From Candidatus Zixiibacteriota bacterium (lineage in GTDB: Bacteria; Zixibacteria; MSB-5A5; GN15; JACZUZ01), in the NCBI GenBank assembly GCA_024280835.1, contig JAJRPJ010000006.1, positions 358,098 to 422,097 of the forward strand: a stretch of 64,000 nt of DNA, given 5' to 3'. Each line of letters begins with the position of its first letter. Positions within the stretch are counted from its first letter, which is position 1. Below the pieces are notes generated by a model. The model was not told the DNA's origin. It ran no database searches and worked only from the letters and a program-made list of their open reading frames with translations. Of this stretch, positions 4,301 through 43,897 are shown piece by piece. Made by a program: the position numbers and the translations under genes.

Positions 4301-5617
4301 ATGGAGAACTATACTACTATGAGTCAAAACTCAGATAAGACCGAACAAGGTCATCCAGATATCGCTTCACTAATTCATGAATGGAATATCGGTGGAGACG
4401 GTTCAGCGGGGGTTGAATACCCTGATATTCACTTTGTCGACGAAACTTTGAGAGATGGCCTGCAGTCGCCATCAATCACAGATCCAGACATTGATCAAAA
4501 AATCCGTATGCTCCATCTGATGGAGAATCTTGGAATTGACTGTGTCGACTTGGGTTTGCCGGGATCTGGACCTCGCGCAGTAGCAGATATCACCCGTCTG
4601 GCGAAGGAAATCAAAGACAACAATTTCAAAATCAAAGCCTATTGCGCAGTCCGCACTCACCCTGCGGATATCAACCCTTTAATAGATATTTCACTAAAAG
4701 TCGGAATGCCCATCGCCGCTGCGGCGTTTATTGGCTCCTCCCCGATTCGTCAATACGCCGAGGGCTGGACTGTCGCTGATATCATCAAGAAATCTGTCGA
4801 AGCGGTTAAACTCGCAGTCGACAATGGCTTGCCCGTGATGTATGTCACTGAAGACACCACACGCGCCACTCCAGATGATATTCGCTCTCTTTACAAGGCG
4901 GCAATAGACAATGGCGCCGAGAGAATTTGCATTTGTGACACCTGCGGCTATGTCACACCTACGGGTGTGCGCAATTTGCTCAAGTTTGTTGGCGAGGTTA
5001 TTACCGAAACTGGGGCTGACATCAAAATCGATTGGCATGGTCACAACGATCGCGGACTCGGTGTCTCGAACTCTCTGACAGCGGTCTATGAAGGTGTCGA
5101 CAGAGTGCATGGTACAATACTTGGCATCGGTGAACGAGTCGGAAATGCCTCACTTGATCAAATTCTGGTGAACCTAAAACTCAATAGAGCCATCGATCGC
5201 GATTTGACATCACTTGCTGAATATTGTGAACTAGTGCGCGAACATTGTCATGGCCCGTTGCCGAATAATTACCCTGTGATGGGAGCCGATGCTTTTCGCA
5301 CTGCAACTGGAGTCCACGCCGCGGCAATTATCAAAGCCGAAGCCAAGGGTGATCACTGGTTGGCCGACAGAGTATATTCCGGCGTGCCAGCTGGGGATTT
5401 CGGCAAAGAGCAAGTCATCGAAATCGGTTTCATGTCTGGTCTCTCCAATGTGAAATACTGGCTGCGCAAGCATGAGATTGCCGGCACAGAAGAAGAGTTA
5501 CTCGAAATCGCCGAAGCAATATTCGCAATCGCCAAGTCACGCAAAGAAAATCTGTCCAATAGTGAAATCCTTGATATAATAGAGAAATGCAAAGCTGAAG
5601 CGCCAAGCGCAAAATAA
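4301..5617 (+). CDS. HMGL-like 2-oxoacid:acetyl-CoA condensing enzyme (2-isopropylmalate / homocitrate / Re-citrate synthase family), short form without LeuA regulatory domain
   Basis: DETLRDGLQSP and HGHNDRGLGVSNSL metal-site motifs. At 438 aa it is too short for a LeuA with the C-terminal allosteric domain. Confidence 0.8.
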   Translation: MENYTTMSQNSDKTEQGHPDIASLIHEWNIGGDGSAGVEYPDIHFVDETLRDGLQSPSITDPDIDQKIRMLHLMENLGIDCVDLGLPGSGPRAVADITRLAKEIKDNNFKIKAYCAVRTHPADINPLIDISLKVGMPIAAAAFIGSSPIRQYAEGWTVADIIKKSVEAVKLAVDNGLPVMYVTEDTTRATPDDIRSLYKAAIDNGAERICICDTCGYVTPTGVRNLLKFVGEVITETGADIKIDWHGHNDRGLGVSNSLTAVYEGVDRVHGTILGIGERVGNASLDQILVNLKLNRAIDRDLTSLAEYCELVREHCHGPLPNNYPVMGADAFRTATGVHAAAIIKAEAKGDHWLADRVYSGVPAGDFGKEQVIEIGFMSGLSNVKYWLRKHEIAGTEEELLEIAEAIFAIAKSRKENLSNSEILDIIEKCKAEAPSAK

Positions 5618-5704: not shown

Positions 5705-7726
5705 ATGAGCAAAACTACAAAACAAAATACCAATTCTCGACCAATGACACTCACCGAGAAAATTCTCGCTGATCACGCAATCGGACTCCGCCGTCCATAC
5801 GTCAAACCCGGTGACATCATCCGCATCAAAGTCGACTGGACTATCGCCTCTGAGTTAGCTTGGAATGGCATGAACCAAACTTATGAGCGGCTTGGCAGAC
5901 CACCGATTCATGACCCCGAAAAGTTCTATCTAGCGATTGATCACACTGTTGACCCAGTCACCATTGTCAATGATCCACGCACACAGCGTCTCATCCAACT
6001 GTCAAAGGCCTTTGCCTCTGAAGCCCAGTTGAAGCATTTTTATGATTCCAACGAGACGATTCTGCACACCAAGTTCTATCGCGATTTAATTCAGCCAGGT
6101 GAAATAGTTCTGGGGGCCGACTCACACACTTCTTCACATGGTGGACTCGGCGCTTTCTCCATCGGTTTAGGTGGCGCTGATATTACAGTGGCTATGGCCC
6201 TTGGTGAAAGTTGGATAGAGGTGCCTTCGGCGATTGCAATTGTCTTCAATGGCGCTTTGCCTTTTGGTGTTGGTGGCAAAGATGTAATACTCAAAACACT
6301 CGGTTTACTAAAACGCAATACCGTTGCAATGGAACGCTCAGTCGAATATATCGGTCCAGCGGTGAGTGAGTTCTCAACTGACATGCGCTTCACAATTGCA
6401 AATATGACCGCCGAACTTGGTGGACTCAATGGAATTTTTGCGCCCGATGAAGTTGTCAGCGCGTGGGTGGCGGGCCGTGAAAGTTACAATACAGGCGGCA
6501 AATATTTCAAAGCCGCTGAAGACGCCGAATATGTCGAACGATTTGAAATCGATCTGAACAACCTTTCGCCACAAATCGCAAAACCTTTCTCACCAGATAA
6601 GACAGTCGACATTGAAGAAGTTCTCGGGACTGCCTTTGATGGTTGTTTCATTGGCGCCTGCACAACTACCGAAGAGGAATTAGTCCTCGGTGGCATGATT
6701 CTCGAACTAGCTCTTGCCGATGGAATCAAAGTCAAAGAGACCACCAAACGTCTTGTAGCTCCAGGTGATTTAACCATCGAGCGCAATTTGCGTGAAGCTG
6801 GTTTACTTGATGTTTACAGAAACGCTGGCTTTAGAATAGCGCCTCCAGGGTGTCACTTGTGCTTGGGAATCGCCTCTGAGCAAGCAGGTAGTGGAGAGAT
6901 TTGGCTTTCGTCACAAAATAGAAACTATCAGAACCGCATGGGCGAAGGCTCACTAGCTTGGCTGGCTTCAGCGGCGACAGTCGCCGCCAGCGCTTTGGAT
7001 TTAACTCTGCGCGACCCCAGAGCTTTCCTTGAGCGTATCGACCGAGAGCGCTATATGCGAATCCTTGGTAGATCAGACCTTGTGCGTCTCACACCCGATG
7101 TTTCGGTGACTTACAGCGAGCCACAAATTGATGTAGTTGAAAAAACCTCGGATGATGAAAGTGTAACTTCCAAAGAATCAGAACAACCAGCGCAACCTGA
7201 GCAGGTAATAGAAGGCCGCGTGCAAATCTTTGGCGATCACATCGACACCGATGCAATTATCCCTGGTGAGTTTTGCCATCTTTCAGATATTGATGAAATC
7301 GGCGCCAAGTGTTTTCACTATGTGCGTCCTGAGTTTATTGGACGCGTTAGTGACGGTCAAACAATTGTTGTCGCTGGTGAGGCATGGGGAAGTGGTTCGT
7401 CGCGTGAACACGCAGTCTGGGCGCTCAAAGGCGCAGGTGTGCAATTAGTAATTGCCAAAGGCTATGCCTTCATTCACAAACGCAACCTAGTCAACGAAGC
7501 GCTACCATATTTACTTGTGACAGATCCAGAGTTTTACAAACTCGTCGCCGAGGATGATGAACTCTCAGTGGATCCATCAAGTGGCAAGATTCTACATGTT
7601 GCTTCAGGCAAAACATTCACTGCCGAATCTCCGAGCGCGATTGTTGTAGCTCTGACAGCCGAGGGCGGCATAGTTCCGGCCATCAAACACTACAACAAAG
7701 AAGTCTTCGCCAAACTGGCTGGCTAA
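5705..7726 (+). CDS. aconitase-family hydro-lyase with catalytic (LeuC/Acn-like) and swivel (LeuD-like) domains fused in one polypeptide
   Basis: GADSHTSSHGG, IGACTTT, GCHLCLG and SSQNRNYQNRMG motifs, so all three Fe-S Cys ligands are present. An acidic linker is followed by a LeuD-like GEAWGSGSSREHAVWAL motif. ATG 5705 is preferred over TTG 5684. Confidence 0.85.
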   Translation: MSKTTKQNTNSRPMTLTEKILADHAIGLRRPYVKPGDIIRIKVDWTIASELAWNGMNQTYERLGRPPIHDPEKFYLAIDHTVDPVTIVNDPRTQRLIQLSKAFASEAQLKHFYDSNETILHTKFYRDLIQPGEIVLGADSHTSSHGGLGAFSIGLGGADITVAMALGESWIEVPSAIAIVFNGALPFGVGGKDVILKTLGLLKRNTVAMERSVEYIGPAVSEFSTDMRFTIANMTAELGGLNGIFAPDEVVSAWVAGRESYNTGGKYFKAAEDAEYVERFEIDLNNLSPQIAKPFSPDKTVDIEEVLGTAFDGCFIGACTTTEEELVLGGMILELALADGIKVKETTKRLVAPGDLTIERNLREAGLLDVYRNAGFRIAPPGCHLCLGIASEQAGSGEIWLSSQNRNYQNRMGEGSLAWLASAATVAASALDLTLRDPRAFLERIDRERYMRILGRSDLVRLTPDVSVTYSEPQIDVVEKTSDDESVTSKESEQPAQPEQVIEGRVQIFGDHIDTDAIIPGEFCHLSDIDEIGAKCFHYVRPEFIGRVSDGQTIVVAGEAWGSGSSREHAVWALKGAGVQLVIAKGYAFIHKRNLVNEALPYLLVTDPEFYKLVAEDDELSVDPSSGKILHVASGKTFTAESPSAIVVALTAEGGIVPAIKHYNKEVFAKLAG

Positions 7727-8415: not shown

Positions 8416-9540
8416 CTATTGCCCGTGAATAGCCGCGCCTGGATTGAATGGACTCCATGAGAACCAATAGGCGATATAGGAAGTTGTTGGCAGAAGTTCG
8501 GTTCCTGCGCGTGGCCCAGAAACAGCGCGGCCAAAAAGATCCCAGCTATTGCCTTCATTGTCAGTCATCACTATCGGCGCAGAGCCTTGGCTAGGTGTGA
8601 AGGTCAATTCAGTTCCGTCACTAAGCGCTCTTTGAAAGACCATGCCAAAGTTTTTGAGTTTGCTAGAAACCACAACGACTGGCATTCCATTGACTACGTC
8701 ATTGATAGTGGCAATTGTATCTGGGAAATTGCGAAATGGATAGACTTTACTTTTGGCTCCGACAATCAAACCGACAACGCGGTCTTTGCCGGGTAATCGT
8801 GTATCTGTAACATTCACAGGAAACAACAAGCGATTATTGTTGGACTTATAGTCACCATAAGGGAATGAACCATAAGGACGGCTAAAGCCAGTGTTAGTGG
8901 AAACCACAGCCGTTTGTGGGAATAATTCCTTAAAAGTTTTCCAAGTAGTTTCAATCATCTGGAAAGTTTCAATTTCTAAGCCAATTCGTTCGCCATTGAC
9001 ACTCTTCAATAGCATTTGCGACCAGACACTGCCTGTTTCTCTATCGAATGGCATCAAATTTGTATTGTAAAGCAATCCCGAAACACCAAAAGTGGTTTCT
9101 CGACCATTGAGTACTCGGTCCCAACCGATTGCCGTGCCTGTCAGCGGACAGTACGTGACAGTGAATGCCGTCGAGCCAATCTTATCATTAATTATTTCAT
9201 GCCAATCCAATATCGGATGTGGATAGGCGCGCACAACATCACCAACCCGCACTCCAATCACTAAATCCTGCTCCAAAAGATATGTGGCCTTGGCCGCTGA
9301 AATCATCTCAGGTGACAACAAAGCTGGGATACCGTCACGTCCTGGGCCGCCGTCAAATACTTCATTCGATGGAATTAACCAAGCGCCGTTGCCTTGTCCT
9401 GATCCAGCGCCGTTGCCTGGTCCTGAACCATTCGAAGAGCTGCTGCAAGAGCTGATGAGAGCAATTGCAATTATTGTAAACGTCAGAAACCCAAGACGTT
9501 CTTTCAATAGTGTCATTTTTTTCGAATTACCGTGAGTCAT
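8416..9540 (-). CDS. DUF3179 domain lipoprotein
   Basis: DGIPALLSP ... VRAYPHPILDWHEIIND ... TYCPLTGT block typical of DUF3179. Lipobox LISSC. ATG at 9540 is preceded by GAGGGG; the track start at 9570 is TTG. Confidence 0.75.
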   Translation of the reverse strand: MTHGNSKKMTLLKERLGFLTFTIIAIALISSCSSSSNGSGPGNGAGSGQGNGAWLIPSNEVFDGGPGRDGIPALLSPEMISAAKATYLLEQDLVIGVRVGDVVRAYPHPILDWHEIINDKIGSTAFTVTYCPLTGTAIGWDRVLNGRETTFGVSGLLYNTNLMPFDRETGSVWSQMLLKSVNGERIGLEIETFQMIETTWKTFKELFPQTAVVSTNTGFSRPYGSFPYGDYKSNNNRLLFPVNVTDTRLPGKDRVVGLIVGAKSKVYPFRNFPDTIATINDVVNGMPVVVVSSKLKNFGMVFQRALSDGTELTFTPSQGSAPIVMTDNEGNSWDLFGRAVSGPRAGTELLPTTSYIAYWFSWSPFNPGAAIHGQ

Positions 9541-12420: not shown

Positions 12421-13839
12421 GTGTTCTTCAAACAGATATTTGAACCAAAACTAGCTCAGTTTGCCTATTTGCTCGGTTGCCCAAAATCAGGCGAAGCTCT
12501 CATCGTTGACCCCCAAAGAGATATCCAGCGCTATATTGAGATTGCTACAGAAAATAGCCTCAAAATAACTGCCGCGGCGGAAACTCATATCCATGCTGAC
12601 TACCTCTCAGGGTTGCGCGAATTCGCCGAAGCTGGCGCCAAAATCTATGCTTCAGATGAAGGTGATGAAAACTGGAAATACGAATGGCTCATCGGCAGTG
12701 ATTACGATTACCACCTACTAAAAGATGGCAATATAATTACTCTTGGCGAATTGACTGTTGTAGCCCAGCACACTCCTGGTCACACTCCCGAGCATTTGAT
12801 CTACAAAGTCTCCAAAGAGAAACAAGGAAACTCGCAAGAGACAGAAATCCTGATGGGCGATTTCGTTTTCGTTGGTGATGTTGGCCGGCCAGATTTACTT
12901 GAAACTGCCGCTGGAGTGACTGGCTCTATGGAAATCGGAGCCAAGCAGATGTTTGATTCGCTTCAACAGTTCAAAACTTTCCCCGCCGACTGGAAAATTT
13001 GGCCAGGGCATGGCGCAGGCAGCGCCTGTGGAAAAGCTCTTGGCTCGGCGCCGTTTTCAACTGTCTCTGATGAGCTAAGCTCCAACGCTGCGATATTGGT
13101 CGCCAGCGACTTTCAGCGTTTCAAAGATTATATTCTTGCAGACCAACCCGAGCCGCCACTCTATTTCGCTCGAATGAAACGCGAGAACCGCTTAGGTCCA
13201 GCAGTCTTAGGAGAATTACCTAGGCCGCAAGAATTGACCTTTGCCGAATTTCAGGAGCTGAGCGCCGAATCTGGGAATATCGTCTTGGATACCAGAAGTT
13301 GGGATGAGTTTCGGCACGGTCATACAGTGGGGGCCTTACACACCCCACTCAATAGCGCTTTCAATACAGTTGCAGGATGCTATGTCACAGAAAGTGACTG
13401 TATGATTTTGCTAGTTGAGCCCGAGCTTCTTGAAGAAGCCCTCACTGATCTAATTCGTATCGGGTTGGATAATGTTATCGGTTATTGTACACCCGAAGCG
13501 TTAGAGAATGCAGTTAAGCATGGTGTGACTCTGGCGAAGACAAAACAGATTTCAATTGATGAATACAATCGGCTTCGCAAGAATGGTGATTACTTAGCGC
13601 TCGATGTTCGGCGGGCTGAAGAGCTAAAAAACGTTGGCCTTATTCCTGGCGCTTACAATATCTCGCATACTCGATTGTTAGATAGGCTAGGTGAGCTTCC
13701 AGCGGAAAAGAAAATCCTAGTGAGTTGTCGCTCTGGAGTGCGGTCTTGTTATGCTAGCTCTTCATTGGAGAGGCATGGTTTTGAGGCGATTAATGTTGTC
13801 GGTGGTTACCTAGGTTGGCTCGAAAATGAGCCAACCTAG
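12421..13839 (+). CDS. MBL-fold persulfide-dioxygenase-like hydrolase fused to two rhodanese domains
   Basis: THIHADYLSG metallo-beta-lactamase motif. C-terminal rhodanese active-site loop CRSGVRS. GTG 12421 is preceded by GAGG. The track start at 12304 adds an implausible Cys/Phe-rich extension. Confidence 0.8.
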   Translation: MFFKQIFEPKLAQFAYLLGCPKSGEALIVDPQRDIQRYIEIATENSLKITAAAETHIHADYLSGLREFAEAGAKIYASDEGDENWKYEWLIGSDYDYHLLKDGNIITLGELTVVAQHTPGHTPEHLIYKVSKEKQGNSQETEILMGDFVFVGDVGRPDLLETAAGVTGSMEIGAKQMFDSLQQFKTFPADWKIWPGHGAGSACGKALGSAPFSTVSDELSSNAAILVASDFQRFKDYILADQPEPPLYFARMKRENRLGPAVLGELPRPQELTFAEFQELSAESGNIVLDTRSWDEFRHGHTVGALHTPLNSAFNTVAGCYVTESDCMILLVEPELLEEALTDLIRIGLDNVIGYCTPEALENAVKHGVTLAKTKQISIDEYNRLRKNGDYLALDVRRAEELKNVGLIPGAYNISHTRLLDRLGELPAEKKILVSCRSGVRSCYASSSLERHGFEAINVVGGYLGWLENEPT

Positions 13840-19204: not shown

Positions 19205-21922
19205 ATGAAAAAGCTGTTAGCATTAAAGTCAGTATTGCGCCTCCTCATCACGGTTTTACTTATCTCATCTTCCGCTCTAGCCGCTGAAAAAACTGAAACT
19301 TGGCAATTGTCACTAGAATATGATCAGTCTTCACTTAGGGCGCTGAATGCTTCCGTTTGTCAGGGCGCTACGAAGAAAGTAGTAACCCCCGGAGTAAACG
19401 GAGCGCCTGCAAAAATTGATTACAATGTCGAATGGCTAGATCAATCGGGAGCGGTAATTTTCATCACTGAAACCAAACTACCTCTCGGAACAATCTCAAC
19501 TTTCACCGAGGGTGAACCTTGCACACGAAGGATCTCACAATCTGGATTCGTAACTTTACGTCTCGAAGGACCAGAGCTAAACTCAAATCCAAGCGCAATC
19601 CGCCTATCTCGTCCATCAACTCAGCGCTCAAGCGGTTTTGGTGAGCCCCTACCAAACTTGTTTACACAGAACACGCTTCTTGTTCCCATAGTGACTTTGG
19701 GAGCTAGAGCATTTGAGCCAGAAGGACCAGTCTCATCATTGAAAATTCGCGATGTCGGGCCAGATGATAATCGGTTGGTTTTTGTGATTATGGGAGATGG
19801 TTACACGGCGGCTAACTTGGCCAATGGTGATTTTGACGCCGATGTCCAAACTGTTATTGCTGCTTTCATAGGCCGCGCGCCTTGGGATGTGCTCTTTGAT
19901 GCTGTCAATATTTATCAGATCAGTGTCGAGAGTAACGAAGAGGGTTCAGACAATGACCCACTAGGAACAACCGTCGACACATATTTACACTCGTCATTTT
20001 GGGTCGCTGGCATCGAGCGTTTACTAGCTCTCGAAGGCCCTGGTTATGGCCGAGCGGTGGCCGCAGCTGACGCCTTTGTAGGGGTGGGCATGTGGGACGA
20101 GCTGGTTGTAGTGGTTAACTCAACTAAGTACGGCGGTTCGGGCGGCTCAATTTCTGTTATCTCGGTAAACGGCGCCGCCCCCGAAGTTCTTCTGCACGAA
20201 ATCGGACATACATTCGCAGGACTGGCAGATGAATACGACTATGGTGGCTCTGCTCCACCGACCAGCACAACTGAGCCTAATTCTGATTTGAATTACAATC
20301 CACCGAAATGGGAAGAGTGGATTCTACCGACTACACCACTACCGACACCAGTTCAGGGTAATGACACTCTAGTCGGAGCGTTTGAGGGTGGAGCCTACTA
20401 TCCCACTGGCTCTTATCGACCGTGGGTTGATTGCCTGATGCGCTCGCTGGGTCGTGAACTCGATCCAGTTTGTAAAGAAGCCCATGTGCTCGAACTTGCC
20501 AATCGGCTTAGTTTAGTTGATGACTTTTCTTTCAACGCCGCTCCAATTCTGATAGACACATTCAATACAGTGTTTTCATCAACTCCACTGACTCTACCAG
20601 GGCTTTCTTTCCAATGGAAAGTCAACGGGCTAACTCCCACTTGCGGCGTCGAACCAGTCTATCAAGTCAGCTCCACAGAACTTCCGAATTTCGTCAATGA
20701 TGTCCAATTGATTGTCGAATTCCCAACTCTCCTTGTTCGTCAGGATACAATTGTCGATACAATATTCTGGATAGCGATTATGGATTGCAACGGAAACGGA
20801 ATCAATGACAGCCTTGACATTCTCGGTGGAACACCGGATCTCAATAGCAATGGAATCATTGATGCTTGCGAAAGCAGTGGCTGTTGCGTTACACCAGGTG
20901 ACGCTGACGGCTCTGGGAGTACAAATGTCGGTGATGTAACATTTTTAATTGTCCGAATTTTCAACAGTGGCCCAGCGCCAATTTGCTCCGAAGAAGGTGA
21001 CGCTGACGCTAACGGTAGTGTCAACATCGCTGATGTAACATTTCTGATTGCCAGAATTTTTGGTGGTGGTCCAGCTCCTCAGTGTTTGTCGATGGGCTCG
21101 GGTAATTCAGAATGGACTGGACTGCCTTGCGCATTACCACAGGATATTTACGCTATCTGGGGACTGGCCGACGATGATATCTTTGCGGTTGGTGATGCGG
21201 GACTAATCTTACACTATGACGGATTCGGTTGGGAACCAAGATTAGGCGGCCAAGGCAATCAATTGATAGCGTTATGGGGAACAGCGGCAGATAATATCTA
21301 CGCCGTTGGAATCTCCGATGGTGTCTTGCTTCACTATAACGGAGTAGGCTGGAATCTCGAACCCAATGCTTCAACTTCGAATCTCTTTGGAATATGGGGC
21401 TCAGCGCCTGATGATGTCTTTATGGTAGGCTTCAATATGGTGCAACACTTTGACGGCTCCAGTTGGTCTGTGTCACATCCAGAATCATTTGCCTTCCTAA
21501 CAGGTGTCTGGGGCGCTGGCGCCATCGATGTCTATGTTGTGGGTTTTGGCGGAAAGATGTTACACTATGACGGCGCTTGGACAACTTTGCCTACAGTCAC
21601 TAACAAAGACCTCAATGCAATCTGGGGATCCGGACCAAACGATATTTTTTCGGTCGGAGCCACAGGAACTATTTTGCATTCAGCAGGTGGGGCATGGACT
21701 TCAATGTTCACAGGTGTCACCTCAGACCTAAACTGTATCTGGGGAACCTCGGGCGATGATGTCTATGCCGCAGGTGACAATGGAGTGATACTCCACTACA
21801 ATGGTACAATTTGGCAGCCTATGCAAAACTCAGGAACCGCCGACTTACAAGGAATCTGGGGAGCAAATTCAAACCTCCAGTCAGTAGGCAAAACTGGAAC
21901 AATCCTAAAGCTCGAAAACTAA
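19205..21922 (+). CDS. secreted M64-family (IgA-peptidase-like) metallopeptidase with two dockerin-type repeats and a C-terminal 7-repeat beta-propeller-like domain
   Basis: Signal peptide ending SSALA. HEIGHTFAGLADEY zinc motif typical of M64. Two GDAD(G/A)(S/N)GS.N..DVTFLI.RIF repeats. Seven repeats of about 40 aa each with the pattern IWG..(D)D(I/V)(F/Y)(A/V)VG..G.ILHY(D/N)G..W. Confidence 0.8.
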   Translation: MKKLLALKSVLRLLITVLLISSSALAAEKTETWQLSLEYDQSSLRALNASVCQGATKKVVTPGVNGAPAKIDYNVEWLDQSGAVIFITETKLPLGTISTFTEGEPCTRRISQSGFVTLRLEGPELNSNPSAIRLSRPSTQRSSGFGEPLPNLFTQNTLLVPIVTLGARAFEPEGPVSSLKIRDVGPDDNRLVFVIMGDGYTAANLANGDFDADVQTVIAAFIGRAPWDVLFDAVNIYQISVESNEEGSDNDPLGTTVDTYLHSSFWVAGIERLLALEGPGYGRAVAAADAFVGVGMWDELVVVVNSTKYGGSGGSISVISVNGAAPEVLLHEIGHTFAGLADEYDYGGSAPPTSTTEPNSDLNYNPPKWEEWILPTTPLPTPVQGNDTLVGAFEGGAYYPTGSYRPWVDCLMRSLGRELDPVCKEAHVLELANRLSLVDDFSFNAAPILIDTFNTVFSSTPLTLPGLSFQWKVNGLTPTCGVEPVYQVSSTELPNFVNDVQLIVEFPTLLVRQDTIVDTIFWIAIMDCNGNGINDSLDILGGTPDLNSNGIIDACESSGCCVTPGDADGSGSTNVGDVTFLIVRIFNSGPAPICSEEGDADANGSVNIADVTFLIARIFGGGPAPQCLSMGSGNSEWTGLPCALPQDIYAIWGLADDDIFAVGDAGLILHYDGFGWEPRLGGQGNQLIALWGTAADNIYAVGISDGVLLHYNGVGWNLEPNASTSNLFGIWGSAPDDVFMVGFNMVQHFDGSSWSVSHPESFAFLTGVWGAGAIDVYVVGFGGKMLHYDGAWTTLPTVTNKDLNAIWGSGPNDIFSVGATGTILHSAGGAWTSMFTGVTSDLNCIWGTSGDDVYAAGDNGVILHYNGTIWQPMQNSGTADLQGIWGANSNLQSVGKTGTILKLEN
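20897..21094 (+). repeat. intragenic tandem duplication (2 x 99 nt) encoding dockerin/EF-hand-like repeats
   Basis: GGTGACGCTGACGG... at 20897 and GGTGACGCTGACGC... at 20996. They translate to GDADGSGSTNVGDVTFLIVRIFNSGPAPICSEE and GDADANGSVNIADVTFLIARIFGGGPAPQCLSM. Confidence 0.85.
21142..21919 (+). repeat. seven tandem ~40-aa WG/ILHY repeats (propeller-like) at the C-terminus of the M64 protein
   Basis: Repeat units were read directly from the translation (DIYAIWG...ILHYDG..W, LIALWG...LLHYNG..W, and so on). Confidence 0.75.
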
Positions 21923-29550: not shown

Positions 29551-31536
29551 ATGGCAAAAGCAAAAGACAGATTCATCCTTTGGGGCATCTTAGTCGCCCT
29601 AGTCGCTGGTGTATTTATCGGCTGGTATTTCCCTGAAGCGGCGCAAAACCTTTCGTTCCTAGGGTCGTTATTCTTCAACGCTCTGTACCTGATTATTGTC
29701 CCGTTGATTGTTGCCAGTATGGTTGTTGGTATCACAGCGCTAGGCGATGTACGCAAGCTCGGACGCACTGCGCGATTGGCCATCTTGTATTTCATGGGTA
29801 CCAGCGCGGTAGCGGTCATCATTGGAATCATTCTTGCAGTTACCATTCAGCCAGGTATTACAGGAGACGCTTTACCTATAGTTACGGGCGGCTCTGGTTT
29901 TGATTTGTATGATATGTTTTCAAAAATCGGCGGAGCATTAGCACATACTCTCAATGAAATGATTCCCCGCAATATCATCGCCGCTGCCGCCGAAACAAAA
30001 GTTTTGGCGTTGATTGTTTTCTCGTTGTTTTTTGGAGGAATCCTGTCGGGCATGGGGACACGCGCAAAACCAGTCATCGAATTCTTTGGAATTGTTAATG
30101 ATGCAATCATGAAACTTGTGCATCTTGTGATGTATTTGGCTCCACTAGGTGTGCTTGGCATTGTCGCTTCAAAAGTTGGTGAGAAAGCAGGTGACCTAGC
30201 TGGCTCGGCTGTGAGTATTGGCATGTTCTCGATTGTCGTGATAATAGGCTTGTTGATTCATGGAGTACTGCTAACTGTAGTTTTGAAATACATGACTGAT
30301 AGAAACCCATGGACATATTTGCTGAATATGGGGCAAGCGCTTTCAACGGCTGTCGGTGTTTCCTCATCATCGGCAACATTGCCGGTGACGATGGAATGTG
30401 TCGTCGAAAAAAACAAAGTTGATCAACGCGCCGCTTCGTTTGTTTTGCCGTTAGGTACAACCATCAATATGGATGGCACAGCGATGTATCAGGCCATCTC
30501 AACGATCTTTATCTGTCAGCTCTTTGGGATAGAACTTGGTGTTAGTCAGTATGTGATAATGTTCATCACCGCGATCTTGGCTTCAGTTGGAGCGCCTGGA
30601 TTGCCGCAAGCTGGAATTGTGATGATGACGATGGTGATGGGTTCAGTGGGTGTGCCACCTGAGATTATCGCCCAAGGTATCGGAATAATATTGGTGGTTG
30701 ATTGGGCTCTCGACAGAGGTCGTACAGCTCTAAATGTCTACGGTGATGCAGTTGGCGCAGCGGTGATTGCCAATACTTTTGAATTCAAAACAGGCGCCTC
30801 TCAACGTCGCACTCCAGCCAAACGTGACGAGAGTCGTGGTCGCTCATCGGAACGTTCATCTTCTGGAAGCTCAGATAGATCGTCCCGCAAAGGCGGGCGC
30901 AATGATAGAAACGATAGGAATGATAGAAGCTCACGCCGCAAATCAAGATCATCTGAGTATGTCGAACGTCCTTCTCCAGAAAGTTTTGGTGGAGCGTCAG
31001 TCGGCTGGGGACCTAGTTCGGAAAGTGACTCGACTCCGAAGACAAAGGCGCCGCAAAAACGAGAGAGGGTCAGTCAAAGAACTCCCTTGACTGAGGCCGA
31101 AATTGCCAGTGATCGTGAGTTGTTTGCAACTATGATCAAAGCGCCTGTTTTCGATTTGTCAAATTTTGAAGAGACAACTGAAGAGTCCATTGAAGCGCCA
31201 ACTGAAGTGCCCAAGGCCGAGATTGAGGTTAGCGGAGAGTCTTCGATAGTAGAGCCAATTGTAGAGTCAATTGAAGCGCCAGAAGAGTCAGTTCAAGAAT
31301 CGACTGAAGAATCGACTGAAGAGTTAGTTGATACACCAGAGCCAGTTGAAGAATCTACTGAGGTGCCTGAGTCTGTGTTCTCTGAGGACAATGATGATGA
31401 CTTGGCGCCAGAAGGCTCCAGTTATAGTGACGATGAAGATGTAGCAGCTGACGAGCCACCTAGTCCATCAGATCCTGATTCGGATTCTCCACCCGATGAA
31501 CCTGCTCGCTTTGGACGATCACAGCGCCGTGGCTAA
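29551..31536 (+). CDS. dicarboxylate/amino acid:cation symporter (DAACS family) with ~250-aa low-complexity C-terminal tail
   Basis: Core with the SSSATLP motif and GDAVGAAVI. The tail starts near 30790: an Arg/Ser/Asp-rich block, then a Glu/Ser/Pro-rich block. Confidence 0.85.
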   Translation: MAKAKDRFILWGILVALVAGVFIGWYFPEAAQNLSFLGSLFFNALYLIIVPLIVASMVVGITALGDVRKLGRTARLAILYFMGTSAVAVIIGIILAVTIQPGITGDALPIVTGGSGFDLYDMFSKIGGALAHTLNEMIPRNIIAAAAETKVLALIVFSLFFGGILSGMGTRAKPVIEFFGIVNDAIMKLVHLVMYLAPLGVLGIVASKVGEKAGDLAGSAVSIGMFSIVVIIGLLIHGVLLTVVLKYMTDRNPWTYLLNMGQALSTAVGVSSSSATLPVTMECVVEKNKVDQRAASFVLPLGTTINMDGTAMYQAISTIFICQLFGIELGVSQYVIMFITAILASVGAPGLPQAGIVMMTMVMGSVGVPPEIIAQGIGIILVVDWALDRGRTALNVYGDAVGAAVIANTFEFKTGASQRRTPAKRDESRGRSSERSSSGSSDRSSRKGGRNDRNDRNDRSSRRKSRSSEYVERPSPESFGGASVGWGPSSESDSTPKTKAPQKRERVSQRTPLTEAEIASDRELFATMIKAPVFDLSNFEETTEESIEAPTEVPKAEIEVSGESSIVEPIVESIEAPEESVQESTEESTEELVDTPEPVEESTEVPESVFSEDNDDDLAPEGSSYSDDEDVAADEPPSPSDPDSDSPPDEPARFGRSQRRG

Positions 31537-40452: not shown

Positions 40453-40887
40453 ATGATTATGGGTCAGCGATTGATTACTTGGACTATCGGCGCGTTATTT
40501 TCACTTGCTTTTTTTAGTGTACTAATGTCAAAACTTTCGACTACAGGCGTACAGATTCCCTCTCTCATGGCTCGACCAAATTACGTCCCTGAAACAGCAG
40601 TTCAGCGTATCGCCGCGCGGATATGGTTCGATTGTCAGAAATCAGAGGACGGAAATCCGAATCATTTCGAAGTGACCATCTACGACGGAGATACAGCTCA
40701 AGTTCGCATGCGAGAGGACATAGGCTTCCCAACTGAAATAGTTGCCATTGGAACTTACGAGCTCTCAGGTCCAGCGGTCACTCCAAGCGAATTACGCCAT
40801 CTCTTCCACTTTTATGACGGTGAAATAATCTATCTCAAGAACGGCGAAGACCTGACCCAAGTCTTTGACATGTCCTCCAACTGGTAG
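40453..40887 (+). CDS. hypothetical membrane-anchored protein
   Basis: Single N-terminal TM segment (ITWTIGALFSLAFFSVLM). No recognisable domain. Confidence 0.5.
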   Translation: MIMGQRLITWTIGALFSLAFFSVLMSKLSTTGVQIPSLMARPNYVPETAVQRIAARIWFDCQKSEDGNPNHFEVTIYDGDTAQVRMREDIGFPTEIVAIGTYELSGPAVTPSELRHLFHFYDGEIIYLKNGEDLTQVFDMSSNW

Positions 40888-40906
40888 TCGCCCTGCCAGA
40901 ATTATC

Positions 40907-40935
40907 TTGACAGGATTTCTGCTATGAGTTATTAT
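40907..40935 (+). promoter_or_regulatory. near-consensus sigma70-type promoter
   Basis: TTGACA (40907-40912), exactly 17 nt, TATTAT (40930-40935). Predicted start near 40942. No ORF follows. Confidence 0.55.
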
Positions 40936-40941
40936 TATTGT

Positions 40942-41825
40942 GTAGGTGGAGAATTCCCTCATGTAGTGCGCTGTGCGTTGACTATGTAGTTGTAACGGCG
41001 TTTTCAACGAGCCTCAGAGTTCAGATAAATCCACCTACAACCCCACCCTCTCAACCTGAATCTCTAGACTTAACATTTTCAAGAGTTTTTATTTGCGCTG
41101 AGTCCCTCCAGCAGACTTTTGCAAAACATTTCCTCACGCTCTGACACCTGGAAGTTGTACCGTTGCAGAATTGCGTAATTCACAGTCGCGTATGGCATTC
41201 TCGCGCATATCGCAGAGCAACCTTAGATATTTGATGTTGATTATCACCCCCGGCTAACGCCGAGTTAGTGGTCAACCATCTCTCCCTCAGGAAGGAGGCG
41301 TGTTATGAGGTAGTTGAGTGTGGTGGAGATTTTCTCTCTGTCACAAAGCGAATGTTCTCCAGTCGCAGTCTTTACGGAAATTCAACTGTGACAACTAGTT
41401 CAGAACATTCGTCGGTTGGTTGTTGCTATGCCATGTGGCAGTATTCTAAATCGGCCCAGAATCCTGTTCCACAGGCTTAGCGCGGCGCTTCAGTTGAAAC
41501 TTGCTGTAGCGCAATCGAAAGACAATCAGCCCAGTATCCCATTAGACATTAGTTGATTCTAACATGGAGTTTTTGTCGATGGGTATTTTGAGGTAGAGCT
41601 AACTACAAATGTTCGCTACGAGAGGAGTGAATATTGTAGTGTGTGGCGCTACCATTTACAAAAGCGATAGAACAAGTGTGAACCTATTTAGCCTTACTTC
41701 AGAATGGAAATACAGTTCTGAAATCGCATCTGGAAAACTCATAGCTAGGTCACACAACTAAATCGCACTTTGATCCGCAAATCGAAGCTCCACCGGAATC
41801 GAAACTGATTCCGGTGGTTTTTTTT
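40942..41825 (+). ncRNA. candidate long non-coding RNA (unknown class), bounded by the promoter at 40907 and the terminator at 41790
   Basis: No ORF longer than 70 aa in any frame. A perfect 10-bp helix pairs 40941-40950 with 41030-41039. A helix of 11 pairs joins 41348-41358 to 41402-41412 and encloses 41362-41368/41386-41392. A hairpin pairs 41698-41704 with 41716-41722. A strong terminator closes the unit. It might instead be two shorter RNAs. Confidence 0.4.
41790..41825 (+). terminator. strong intrinsic terminator
   Basis: CCACCGGAATC (41790-41800) / GATTCCGGTGG (41807-41817), 6-nt loop, then T8 (41818-41825). Confidence 0.9.
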
Positions 41826-42040
41826 GCTCATGAGACTCTATGAACTTTCAAATAGTAGAGCTTTATGGCACAAAGTACGCTGACGCGCATTATCCCTCGC
41901 GATCTCCCTACATTGTGGGGTGTATCCCATAATTTCGAGTATGTGAACCATGTTTATGGCTAACCTCTTGGAAGTAATCTATGATGTATGCTCTTCTAGC
42001 ATAACGGCTTAAGTTGGAGAGACTCTCTATCAATACCTCT

Positions 42041-42056
42041 TGGCGCCACACTTGCA
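42041..42056 (+). promoter_or_regulatory. sigma54-type (-24/-12) promoter candidate
   Basis: TGGCGC-CACAC-TTGCA against the consensus TGGCAC-N5-TTGCA. The GG and GC spacing is exact. It lies 100 nt upstream of GTG 42156. Confidence 0.5.
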
Positions 42057-42155
42057 ATAGGAGAGCGTGTCACACAAAGCATGAGAATATTCATGCTCTA
42101 ATGACAACGACGCTATACGAATGCAACATCAGCGGTTTGATAGAGGAGGCGCCGA

Positions 42156-42401
42156 GTGCGAGTAAAGTTTACATTGACGATGGATGATGTGACAGTCAAT
42201 GATAATGACATTGATTGCATTATTATTGACTGGATCGACGATATCAACGAACAAGAAGTCGTTGCTTTGTCACATCGTTGGATTTCTACACAAAACTTCC
42301 TGAGTCAGAGCATGGAAGGGCTCTCCAGAGTCGGTGAATCATCACTGACAATTGAGCCAATGGATTCTGATGCCCCAGATTCAAATTCACCACAACTGTA
42401 A
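42156..42401 (+). CDS. small acidic hypothetical protein (81 aa)
   Basis: GTG start 6 nt after GAGGAGG. Asp/Glu-rich. Followed by a hairpin terminator. Confidence 0.5.
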   Translation: MRVKFTLTMDDVTVNDNDIDCIIIDWIDDINEQEVVALSHRWISTQNFLSQSMEGLSRVGESSLTIEPMDSDAPDSNSPQL

Positions 42402-43004: not shown

Positions 43005-43240
43005 CCCAGCAATACCCACTTAGCTCCCATAAGCATGGGGAGCGCCCTATCATTTCTTCATGATTTATCCTTTCTGATGTCGCGCTCCTGTCGCCGTATC
43101 TGACTGTGGTTTAGCTGCTTGCAAATATTATGTCAGCATGGCGCCACCCTTGCACTAATACATTTCGATTACATCTGAAACACGATCATTTGAGCGTCAA
43201 TAAACAACTTCGACTCAGGTGTTTTGAGGGGAATATCGAA

Positions 43241-43897
43241 ATGACTGCACAAGAAATAACCACACAGAACCAGACGACAGCCAAGTCAAAAAGCCGTCAG
43301 AAAAAGAGCGCAACTCCAGCCATTCCAAATGGAACCAGAGGGCGCGTTCGACGCAAAGCTAACAGCGCTTCAAATTCACAAAACTCTGCTACTCAACAAG
43401 AGATAGAATCTCACGAAAGCGCTCTCAGCAATGCAGAGACTGTCTGTATCAACTGTGGCGGCGATTTGTTATTCCTTGAGGAAGCGCGCTTGTGTCCCAA
43501 GTGCAACAGTGAAGCGACTGTCACTATGCTCAGCGAATACGCGCCAGTTATTATGGAGTCAGCTGAAATGGATCGTGGCTTTATCGAATGCCCAGGAGCA
43601 ACCATCTTTGATTCAGAAACTGGTGAGCCGCTTGAAGGCGCGGTCTTTGGCGATAACACCAATGAGGGCTACAAAGTCAAGCATATGAAGTGGCCAGTTT
43701 TCCCTCCCGGGCACAAAAAACGCCGCATGATACCCACTGAGGCCTTTGGTAAGATACGCCGCTGTCGTACCTGTCAGGACTATACGGTGCGAATGAGACG
43801 CAAGGAGGGGGCTGATTTTTGTGCTCCTAGCTCCAAATTCCCTCGCCGCAAACGGCTCAAAAGTGTCGATTTGGTTAGTCATCGTCAGCCACTTTAA
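43241..43897 (+). CDS. hypothetical basic protein with zinc-ribbon CxxC pairs
   Basis: CINCGG...CPKCN and CRTCQD...FCAP. Lys/Arg-rich ends. ATG 43241 follows GAGGGG. The track start at 43130 is less likely. Confidence 0.5.
   Translation: MTAQEITTQNQTTAKSKSRQKKSATPAIPNGTRGRVRRKANSASNSQNSATQQEIESHESALSNAETVCINCGGDLLFLEEARLCPKCNSEATVTMLSEYAPVIMESAEMDRGFIECPGATIFDSETGEPLEGAVFGDNTNEGYKVKHMKWPVFPPGHKKRRMIPTEAFGKIRRCRTCQDYTVRMRRKEGADFCAPSSKFPRRKRLKSVDLVSHRQPL

Follow-up and report, generated by a model that had tools for sequence, protein, structure and literature searches.

A probable new family of large structured non-coding RNA upstream of a conserved small-protein operon in Zixibacteria

The DNA examined here (the window) is a stretch of 64,000 nucleotides (nt) from a Candidatus Zixiibacteriota bacterium (GenBank assembly GCA_024280835.1, contig JAJRPJ010000006.1, positions 358,098 to 422,097, forward strand). 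In the part considered, the neighbours are chromosomal housekeeping genes: a TrmA-like methyltransferase, a HIT protein and an aconitase-family protein lie upstream, followed by an open reading frame (ORF) of 144 amino acids (aa), o144, whereas three small proteins and then DciA and GyrB lie downstream. Between the stop of o144 (40887) and the start of the 81-aa ORF o81 (42156) there are 1268 nt without any credible gene (40888-42155). Of the ORFs that touch this gap, the longest has 71 aa, is on the minus strand and extends into the upstream gene; the next two have 70 and 68 aa. The gap of about 1.27 kb without a long ORF described in the initial annotation was thus recovered, ORFs inside it reaching at most about 70 aa. 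That annotation had read positions 40907-41825 of the + strand as an ORF-free unit running from promoter to terminator and producing a large structured non-coding RNA (ncRNA) of unrecognised class. Conservation, covariation and negative Rfam searches all support this reading, and we conclude that the region is very probably a free-standing gene for a heavily paired ncRNA of about 885 nt whose family is not in Rfam. The unit consists of a terminal stem, a fast-evolving pyrimidine-rich 5' third, a core of about 420 nt with at least 12 helices, and a 3' tail. The coordinates of its features are collected in Table 1.

Table 1. Features of the RNA unit, of its copies and of the region between the unit and o81 (window positions unless a relative is named; SD, Shine-Dalgarno sequence).
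Feature	Position	Strand	Remarks
Sigma-70-type promoter	40907-40935	+	-35 TTGACA 40907-40912, 17-nt spacer, -10 TATTAT 40930-40935; score 11/12
5' terminal stem-loop domain	40941-41039	+	closing stem 40941-40950/41030-41039, perfect 10 bp
C-rich, G-poor tract ACCCCACCCUCUCAACC	41040-41056	+	directly 3' of the 5' stem; a C-rich tract there in all five lineages
Semi-conserved block GCAAAACAUUUCCUCACGCUCUGACACCUGGAAGU	41120-41156	+	kept in window, L081 and L082, not in L084; within the variable 5' third
Conserved multi-helix core	41245-41665	+	about 420 nt; RNAalifold and pair counting
Best-conserved element	41278-41313	+	21-mer AUCUCUCCCUCAGGAAGGAGG (41278-41298), SD hairpin CCUC-AGGAAG-GAGG, AUG, codon, stop
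Core helix	41273-41282/41307-41316	+	consensus fold
Core helix	41285-41288/41295-41298	+	consensus fold
Core helix	41319-41328/41336-41345	+	consensus fold
Core helix	41350-41358/41402-41410	+	five covarying pairs, among best supported
Core helix	41362-41369/41385-41392	+	among best supported
Core helix	41414-41423/41522-41531	+	long range, among best supported
Core helix	41428-41437/41470-41478	+	among best supported
Core helix	41445-41448/41458-41461	+	consensus fold
Core helix	41538-41543/41578-41583	+	among best supported
Core helix	41593-41600/41645-41652	+	five covarying pairs, among best supported
Core helix	41604-41606/41637-41641	+	consensus fold
Core helix	41611-41617/41626-41632	+	closes conserved loop ACGAGAGG; among best supported
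Window-specific 53-nt insertion	41681-41733	+	absent from L081 and L082 in the alignment
Conserved 3' tail AAAUCGCACUUUGAUCCGCAAAUCGAAGCU	41760-41789	+	comparison with L081, L082 and L116
Intrinsic terminator	41790-41825	+	12-bp stem 41790-41817 (7 G-C), T8 41818-41825
Imperfect palindrome CCCTACATTGTGGGG	41907-41921	+	CCCTAC-ATT-GTGGGG; about 120 nt upstream of the first sigma-54-type site
Sigma-54-type promoter match TGGCGCCACACTTGCA	42041-42056	+	about 100 nt before the o81 start (42156); outside the RNA
Window copy	promoter 40905, core motif 41281, terminator 41790-41825		motif location
L081 copy	promoter 12418, core motif 12865, terminator 13371-13405		motif location
L082 copy	promoter 5030, core motif 5386, terminator 5848-5883		motif location

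The promoter was found exactly where the initial annotation had placed it, and was the top one of eight promoter-like matches between 38 and 45 kb of the window. Since shuffled sequence is expected to give 10.2 such matches, there is no excess, and the promoter match alone is weak evidence that proves nothing. What lifts the unit above chance is that promoter, core and terminator recur in relatives (for these, see below). The -35 hexamer is invariant, and a -10 element of the form TAnnnT stands at 17-nt spacing, in the window, L081, L082, L083, L084/L090 and L116; the scan called the promoter independently in L081 and L082, and made no call in L116, where the -10 element is weak (TACCTT). Judging from promoter spacing, transcription would start at about 40941-40942. 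At the other end, the predicted stem with its T8 tract was also in place, the scan counting 12 pairs and ranking it highest among the terminator-like matches. Terminators were called in the window, L081, L082 and L116. The stem shows compensatory changes (GGAAUC/GAUUCC versus GGGACC/GGUCCC), and that of L116 is different. Tail and terminator together are 87% identical to those of L081 and L082, above the values of the flanking coding genes, and L116 retains AAUCGC-N10-CGCAAAUC immediately before its own terminator.

The relatives used for comparison were the contigs encoding the closest homologues of the aconitase-family protein (64-71% identity), plus L090 and L116. Homologous intergenic regions, on whose existence the initial annotation had made its proposal depend, were found in four other uncultured, Zixibacteria-related lineages (L081, L082, L084/L090 and, as a fragment, L083), and to these the divergent L116 can be added. 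L081 is fully syntenic with the window, its order being TrmA, HIT, aconitase, a 141-aa ORF, a gene-free stretch of 1.39 kb, an 81-aa ORF, two small ORFs, DciA and GyrB. Comparison by blastn aligned three blocks of the window with the relatives: 40898-40967 (promoter and 5' end), 41231-41488 (the best conserved part of the core, 72-81% identical) and 41742-41829 (87%); for the coding genes on either side, the same comparison gave 66-83% identity. Conservation is thus patchy, with the 5' end, the core and the 3' tail kept, and the segments 41040-41240 and 41666-41760 not. The length of the unit is 884 nt in the window, 951 nt in L081 and 817 nt in L082, and spans 817-957 nt among the relatives. 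L084 and the near-identical L090 have promoter and core, and the rest is cut off by the contig end, while L083 has the promoter and 5' end only. At 4060-4141 of L084 the 3' part of the RNA turns into a short tandem-like repeat (TTGCACAGAATTGTGTT, two copies) before the contig ends; this may be an assembly break.

L116 was brought in by its o81 homologue (82% identical), which is preceded by a gene-free stretch of 1.47 kb. In the same order and positions as in the window, this stretch contains TTGACA at its start, the 5' stem with GGCG-N5-CCCUC, the element CCCUCAGGGAAGGAGG-N8-AUGAGGUAA, the tail motif and, about 955 nt downstream, a strong terminator. We accept L116 as a probable divergent homologue on the motif order at both ends, the SD and mini-ORF (described below), the length and the synteny. 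Short matches to GGAAAUUC and UCGGCCCA also occur in L116 and were discounted as chance because their order is swapped.

Searches further afield added little to this set. An exact-match scan of Joint Genome Institute (JGI) metagenomes with an invariant 18-mer returned 27 loci, of which L090 alone proved to be a true additional copy. We also built a covariance model (R1) from the first 170 nt of the core. The four full members score 162-189 bits with it and the truncated L090 scores 135 bits, and it gave nothing credible over about 1.3 Mb of other fetched DNA. Its matches in L098 (25.5 bits) and L093 (20.3 bits), on a phage-like contig with 35% GC, were rejected as chance because they run antisense inside a 193-aa ORF at a locus preselected for containing the 18-mer. 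In the deeper aconitase relatives L112-L115 (45% identity) the gap is absent at the syntenic site. The GyrB of the window is at most 67% identical to those of GTDB species representatives (from distant phyla) among the matches listed, and none of the genomes listed there has the RNA region or the neighbouring small proteins. A scan of metagenome contigs with the o144 protein gave no match. The next relatives of the aconitase-family protein bear Zixibacteria labels.

The gene content upstream of the unit differs between lineages: o144 in the window, the aconitase directly in L082 and UbiE in L116. Downstream the context is always o81, wherever there is enough sequence to tell. Because the upstream contexts differ and o81 is constant, the RNA appears linked to the downstream o81 block and not to its upstream neighbour. 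As to the details of these contexts, o144 (window 40453-40887) is missing from L082, where the RNA promoter follows 115 nt after the aconitase gene (4916-5030), and in L116 a block of menaquinone genes ending with UbiE stands in place of o144 (8535-8594).

The comparison with the relatives also bears on coding capacity. There are many insertions and deletions of 1 and 2 nt in the most conserved block, and six-frame translations showed similarity in all frames of both strands, in short frame-switching pieces only. When the 70-aa ORF (41268-41480) is taken as the reading frame, no codon position stands out in its number of mismatches (17/14/14, 20/19/24 and 18/16/19 in the three comparisons). 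None of the seven ORFs of at least 37 aa in the unit had a Pfam match, even at E<=1. The frameshifted pseudogene that the initial annotation had allowed for was therefore not detected by scattered-frame similarity, codon-position mismatches, single-nucleotide indels or Pfam, and we judge from these comparisons that the unit is non-coding.

Nor could the unit be assigned to a known RNA family. At the gathering score, Rfam gave no match in the whole 64-kb window, and at E<=10 no match to OLE, GOLLD, ROOL, HEARO or raiA was found in window positions 40700-42300, L081 12400-13420 or L082 5020-5895; the absence of a confident match, on which the claim of an unrecognised class turned, thus extends to the L081 and L082 units. 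The sub-threshold matches were NsiR1 at 22.1 bits (E=0.15) and 21.3 bits, on the tail and terminator of the window and L082, and ncS16 at 19 bits in L081. Identity with NsiR1, an RNA of cyanobacterial nitrogen stress, was rejected: the scores are below the gathering score of 39 bits, cover tail and terminator only, and look like terminator-shaped noise. The initial annotation had noticed no hallmarks of RNase P RNA, tmRNA, signal recognition particle (SRP) RNA, tRNA or the common riboswitches, and this held when models were used. ARAGORN found no tRNA or tmRNA in the window, Rfam gave no match for RNase P RNA, tmRNA, SRP RNA or 6S RNA in the window or the L081 and L082 units, and the riboswitch models had no match. 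Since the unit is absent from the syntenic site of L112-L115, it is also unlike a universal RNA. Group I and group II introns gave no Rfam match, and the unit has no ORF for a reverse transcriptase or maturase; it lies outside any gene and has its own promoter and terminator, unlike an intron. On this sequence evidence the unit would represent a new RNA family without a detectable relative among the 4,227 Rfam families, of a general kind, the independently transcribed structured ncRNA, that is familiar.

The minimum free energy (MFE) fold of 40942-41825 has -276 kcal/mol (z = -4.65), compared with -258 kcal/mol (z = -3.47) for the reverse strand. For the core, we aligned window positions 41225-41700 with L081, L082 and L084, and RNAalifold returned 98 pairs in 16 helices, with 94.1% of the cells of the alignment paired. 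Covariation, which the initial annotation had regarded as decisive for its helices, is present in these and in some dozen others: 28 of the 98 pairs have changes on both sides that keep the pair, compared with 13.8±2.7 in column shuffles, and none of 500 shuffles reached the observed value on any of five measures. Controls in which the 3' partners were slid by 1-3 columns had 4-10 such pairs and 34-49% pairing. There were 64 G-U cells and 9 A-C cells, which favours the + strand. Two helices that had been read by eye, 41348-41358/41402-41412 and the enclosed 41362-41368/41386-41392, are present in both the MFE and the consensus fold, with compensatory changes. A third proposal, the hairpin 41698-41704/41716-41722, forms in the MFE fold of the window and lies inside the 53-nt insertion that is specific to it.

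The 5' end is folded as well. The predicted helix that closes the terminal domain is part of the MFE fold of the window and of the relatives' own folds; it forms in the window, L081, L082, L084 and L116, with compensatory changes of U-A to C-G, G-C to C-G and A-U to C-G, while the domain that it encloses varies from about 30 to 80 nt. The motif CCCUC (40956-40960 in the window) adjoins the 5' strand of this stem and is common to all six copies. Three further interactions were dropped because their support was inconsistent across the homologues: the UUCAAC loop might form a pseudoknot with GUUGA, CCCUCAU at the 5' end might reach AUGAGG over a long distance, and the 3' tail might pair with the ribosome-binding site of o81.

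The best-conserved element of the unit lies within the core. Its 21-mer AUCUCUCCCUCAGGAAGGAGG is invariant in the window, L081, L082, L084 and L090, and in L116 the element takes the form CCCUCAGGGAAGGAGG-N8-AUGAGGUAA given above. It contains a perfect Shine-Dalgarno sequence, GGAAGGAGG, in a hairpin, and in the window this is followed by a 6-nt spacer, AUG (41305-41307), AGG (41308-41310) and UAG (41311-41313). None of the six copies lacks the SD, the AUG or the stop, whereas the spacer differs among them in sequence and in length (6-8 nt). Five copies have AGG as the single sense codon and L081 has AAG (AUG AAG UAA); for the stop, both UAG and UAA occur. In every copy, upstream pyrimidines pair with the SD and with the GAGG of the mini-ORF, the register being shifted in L116; the UAU before the G of the AUG is also conserved, although the consensus fold leaves it unpaired. 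Two-codon minigenes are exemplified by the bar minigenes of phage lambda, and all six copies carry the sequence that defines a minigene of the lambda bar or LEE1 type. A scan of viral contigs for the SD and mini-ORF pattern gave zero matches.

It should be underlined that several observations weigh against the reading of the unit as one large functional RNA with this element at its centre. The core structure was predicted from the same four-sequence alignment on which the pairs were counted, so the agreement is inflated, although the margin of both-sided pairs over the slid controls is large nonetheless. The units come from five independent lineages only, all of them metagenome-derived, and the RNA ends are inferred. 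The 5' third is poorly conserved and so may not be functional RNA. The L116 stretch could not be aligned to the window by blastn, nhmmer or covariance model, despite neighbouring genes that are 70-77% identical, and nothing but synteny and the presence and placement of short motifs ties it to the family. L116 also has an extra promoter-like site at 9005-9032. With regard to the mini-ORF, both-sided changes in its helix are lacking and so speak neither for nor against it, the three substitutions that leave the mini-ORF intact would do so at random with a chance of about 7% (by our own estimate), and the SD and AUG are partly base-paired. The mini-ORF could be a by-product of a purine-rich helix strand, and with five lineages the mini-ORF and the purely structural readings cannot be separated.

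We then weighed other explanations for the unit. One is that it yields two or more separate or processed small RNAs, namely the 5' stem-loop, the core of about 420 nt, and a small RNA made up of tail and terminator. The gaps in conservation at 41040-41240 and 41666-41760, the resemblance of tail and terminator to small RNAs in the sub-threshold Rfam matches (NsiR1 at 22 bits, ncS16 at 19 bits), and the position of the L116 promoter-like site just before the SD hairpin are all consistent with this. However, each unit has one conserved promoter and one conserved terminator, and the overall length is kept. The initial annotation had likewise suggested an internal terminator near 41075-41095 that would divide the unit into two RNAs; this suggestion found no support, as the scan made no call there and the site falls in the least conserved segment. 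We therefore consider several RNAs unlikely, while giving this explanation some weight.

The C-rich motifs suggest another possibility, a trans-acting regulator similar to RNAIII or RsaE: its CCCUC, CUCCC and C-tract sequences would pair with the SD sequences of target mRNAs, and the SD hairpin within the unit would serve as a decoy. CCCUC beside the 5' stem in six copies and the C-tract after the stem in five lineages fit this model. The excess of C over G peaks at +20 per 100 nt in the window and +23 in L116, and C-rich 4-mers number 17-20 against about 12±4 expected in the window, L081 and L082, and 37 against 19±4.8 in L116. On the other hand, the enrichment is weak in the first three copies (z about 1.6-1.9) and absent in L084 (10 versus 8.2), and the model leaves the large covarying core unexplained. 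A regulator of this kind is rather improbable. The C-rich tract, the pyrimidine-rich 5' third as a whole and the CCCUC motifs could be a Rho entry site, motifs for anti-SD-like pairing, or neither.

It is also conceivable that the unit is a very long cis-acting leader of the operon that runs from o81 to dciA-gyrB, with the terminator as a regulated attenuator. Whichever of the three upstream contexts is present, the unit directly adjoins o81 and has the same orientation, and a short ORF upstream of a terminator is the classic layout of an attenuator. The terminator is strong, however (12 bp plus T8), and 330-416 nt separate it from the o81 start codon. Between the two lies the conserved sigma-54-type promoter match (TGGCGCC-N4-CTTGCA), with the palindrome upstream of it, which disfavours a leader. 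No competing conserved antiterminator helix was noticed in the alignments, in which no systematic search for one was made. Taken together, these observations leave a leader with only a slight chance.

The region between terminator and o81 deserves some further comment. The sigma-54-type pattern has two matches in the window (42041-42056 and 43139-43154) where 0.26 are expected, and L081 and L116 have kept both sites. The palindrome recurs in L081, L082 (at about 5940) and L116 (at about 9740), and its position is where a site for an enhancer-binding protein is expected. If the predicted sigma-54 promoter is active, o81 would have its own regulated transcription start.

The remaining two explanations are the least probable. 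A DNA-level feature (a replication origin, a regulatory DNA region by dciA-gyrB or what is left of a mobile element) would suit the long non-coding stretch and the proximity of dciA and gyrB, but compensatory changes and the asymmetry of G-U over A-C are properties of RNA, and there are no DnaA boxes at <=1 mismatch, no turn in GC skew, no compositional anomaly (the GC content of the unit region, 0.44-0.47, is unremarkable), no second copy of the unit in the 64-kb window and no inverted repeats on its flanks. The idea of a protein-coding gene that is decayed or unusual, or of a very divergent known RNA family missed by the models, could appeal to the ORFs of 68-70 aa and to the fact that covariance models can miss fast-evolving lineages, but is hardly credible given the absence of a conserved ORF, the coding tests above, the negative ARAGORN result and the fact that no Rfam family recurs among the three homologues at E<=10.

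Returning to the reading of the unit as a single large structured ncRNA, we compared it with known systems. Very few bacterial ncRNAs above about 500 nt have extensive conserved structure, the known cases being OLE, GOLLD, ROOL and a handful more, and each of these has proved biochemically unusual. GOLLD and ROOL multimerise and are often associated with prophages, whereas the window unit is chromosomal and syntenic beside housekeeping genes. Recent cryo-electron microscopy work (PMC12286853) is reported to have found RNA-only multimeric complexes. The unit described here resembles OLE, GOLLD and ROOL in size (about 0.6-0.9 kb), in being a gene of its own with separate expression signals, in its many covarying helices, in its lack of coding capacity and in a context that suggests no obvious biochemical role. 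It differs from them in showing no covariance-model similarity even at E<=10, in belonging to a Zixibacteria-related phylum (FCB group), in its far narrower known distribution (five lineages), and in a much faster turnover of sequence, as evident from L116.

Two other groups of RNAs offer partial parallels. Like RNAIII and RsaE of Staphylococcus, the unit is a long, independent RNA with many hairpins, C-rich motifs and an internal ribosome-binding site; in contrast to them it has no real ORF (hld in RNAIII has 26 codons), there is no similarity in sequence or model, and the enrichment of C-motifs is weak. With the CsrB/RsmZ sponges and 6S RNA it shares the appearance of a strongly promoted, terminator-ended, abundant ncRNA. 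The invariant loop CAGGAAG fits the consensus of the CsrB repeat, CAGGA(U/A/C)G. However, the CAGGAAG site is single and Rfam gave no match to CsrB/Rsm or 6S. A role as a sponge for CsrA was rejected, with this one invariant loop and 11 GGA triplets where 11.4±2.9 are expected; the GGA count argues that there is no repeated architecture of binding sites.

The closest parallel for the SD element itself is found among natural two-codon minigenes. The translated two-codon ORF AUG-AAA-UAG in the LEE1 leader of enterohaemorrhagic Escherichia coli has a regulatory role (PMC3262186), and minigenes with AGA or AGG sequester peptidyl-tRNA (PMC2490762). The element described here has the same parts, that is an SD, an AUG, one sense codon (AAG or AGG, compared with AAA in LEE1) and a stop, with the same optimal spacing of 6-8 nt and the same setting within a long untranslated RNA. 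It differs in that, as predicted, it is located in a conserved helix of a structured RNA of about 0.9 kb and has no downstream cistron to regulate.

We infer that the RNA acts in trans, as a structured RNA or an RNA-protein particle. Its functional centre would be the hairpin that half-buries the SD, the element common to all copies. This hairpin, together with the AUG-Arg/Lys-stop, might form a docking site for the 30S subunit or the ribosome, and the large surrounding fold might control access to this site or make use of the parked ribosome. We put forward such docking, controlled or exploited by the surrounding fold, as a tentative model that may well prove wrong. One option within it is that a parked ribosome would shield the long, untranslated C-rich transcript from Rho or RNases, in which case the level of the RNA would report free ribosome capacity. 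The nearest alternative to docking is a dedicated RNA-binding protein that recognises the purine-rich hexaloop. A still stronger version, in which the unit is a new class of RNA of about 0.9 kb that acts by engaging ribosomes through a genuine ribosome-loading two-codon minigene (Met-Arg/Lys-stop) at its core, strikes us as a long shot.

The neighbouring proteins were also examined. The flanking genes had been described as orphans, which does not apply to o81 (window 42156-42401): it has 111 homologues across Zixibacteria that are at least 52% identical, with 20 invariant positions, and is the first gene of the small-protein operon preceding dciA-gyrB. Its AlphaFold model (mean predicted local distance difference test, pLDDT, 80.7) consists of a beta-hairpin, two helices and two strands, and has no fold match in the PDB at E<=0.001. 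No Pfam, NCBIfam or PADLOC assignment was obtained for o144, o81, o154 or o255. The second sigma-54-type match (43139-43154) falls inside the listed 255-aa ORF at 43130-43897, so the true start of this ORF is probably the Met at 43241. This start gives a protein of 218 aa, and the relatives have 205-212 aa. The protein (43241-43897), which sits between o154 and dciA and is conserved in L081 and L116, is very basic, with CxxC zinc-ribbon-like motifs (CINC...CPKC, CRTC) and a C-terminus rich in Arg and Lys, and may bind nucleic acid.

Two repeat regions were seen elsewhere in the window. At 20896-21078, within a 905-aa ORF (19205-21922), there are two 84-nt direct repeats, 73% identical and 99 nt apart, whose translation resembles dockerin-type repeats (GDADGSG...VGDVTFLI). 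At 31170-31368, within the ORF 29551-31536, there is a run of imperfect repeats of about 12-45 nt with a low-complexity look.

As for the literature, we found no description of a Zixibacteria ncRNA. The unit adds a large structured RNA from an uncultured phylum with almost no RNA annotation, and offers a testable handle in the form of an invariant hairpin, resembling a ribosome-binding site, with a two-codon ORF. The narrow known distribution, five metagenomic lineages, sets a limit on its interest. The neighbourhood, too, can be relabelled, with o81 as a conserved Zixibacteria family behind a conserved sigma-54-type promoter match. If the ribosome-engaging minigene were real, the RNA could sense or buffer free 30S or tRNA-Arg capacity, or could, with a ribosome parked on it, act as a roadblock by which Rho is gated at the C-rich 5' region of the RNA itself, and it may be widespread upstream of the o81 family throughout Zixibacteria.

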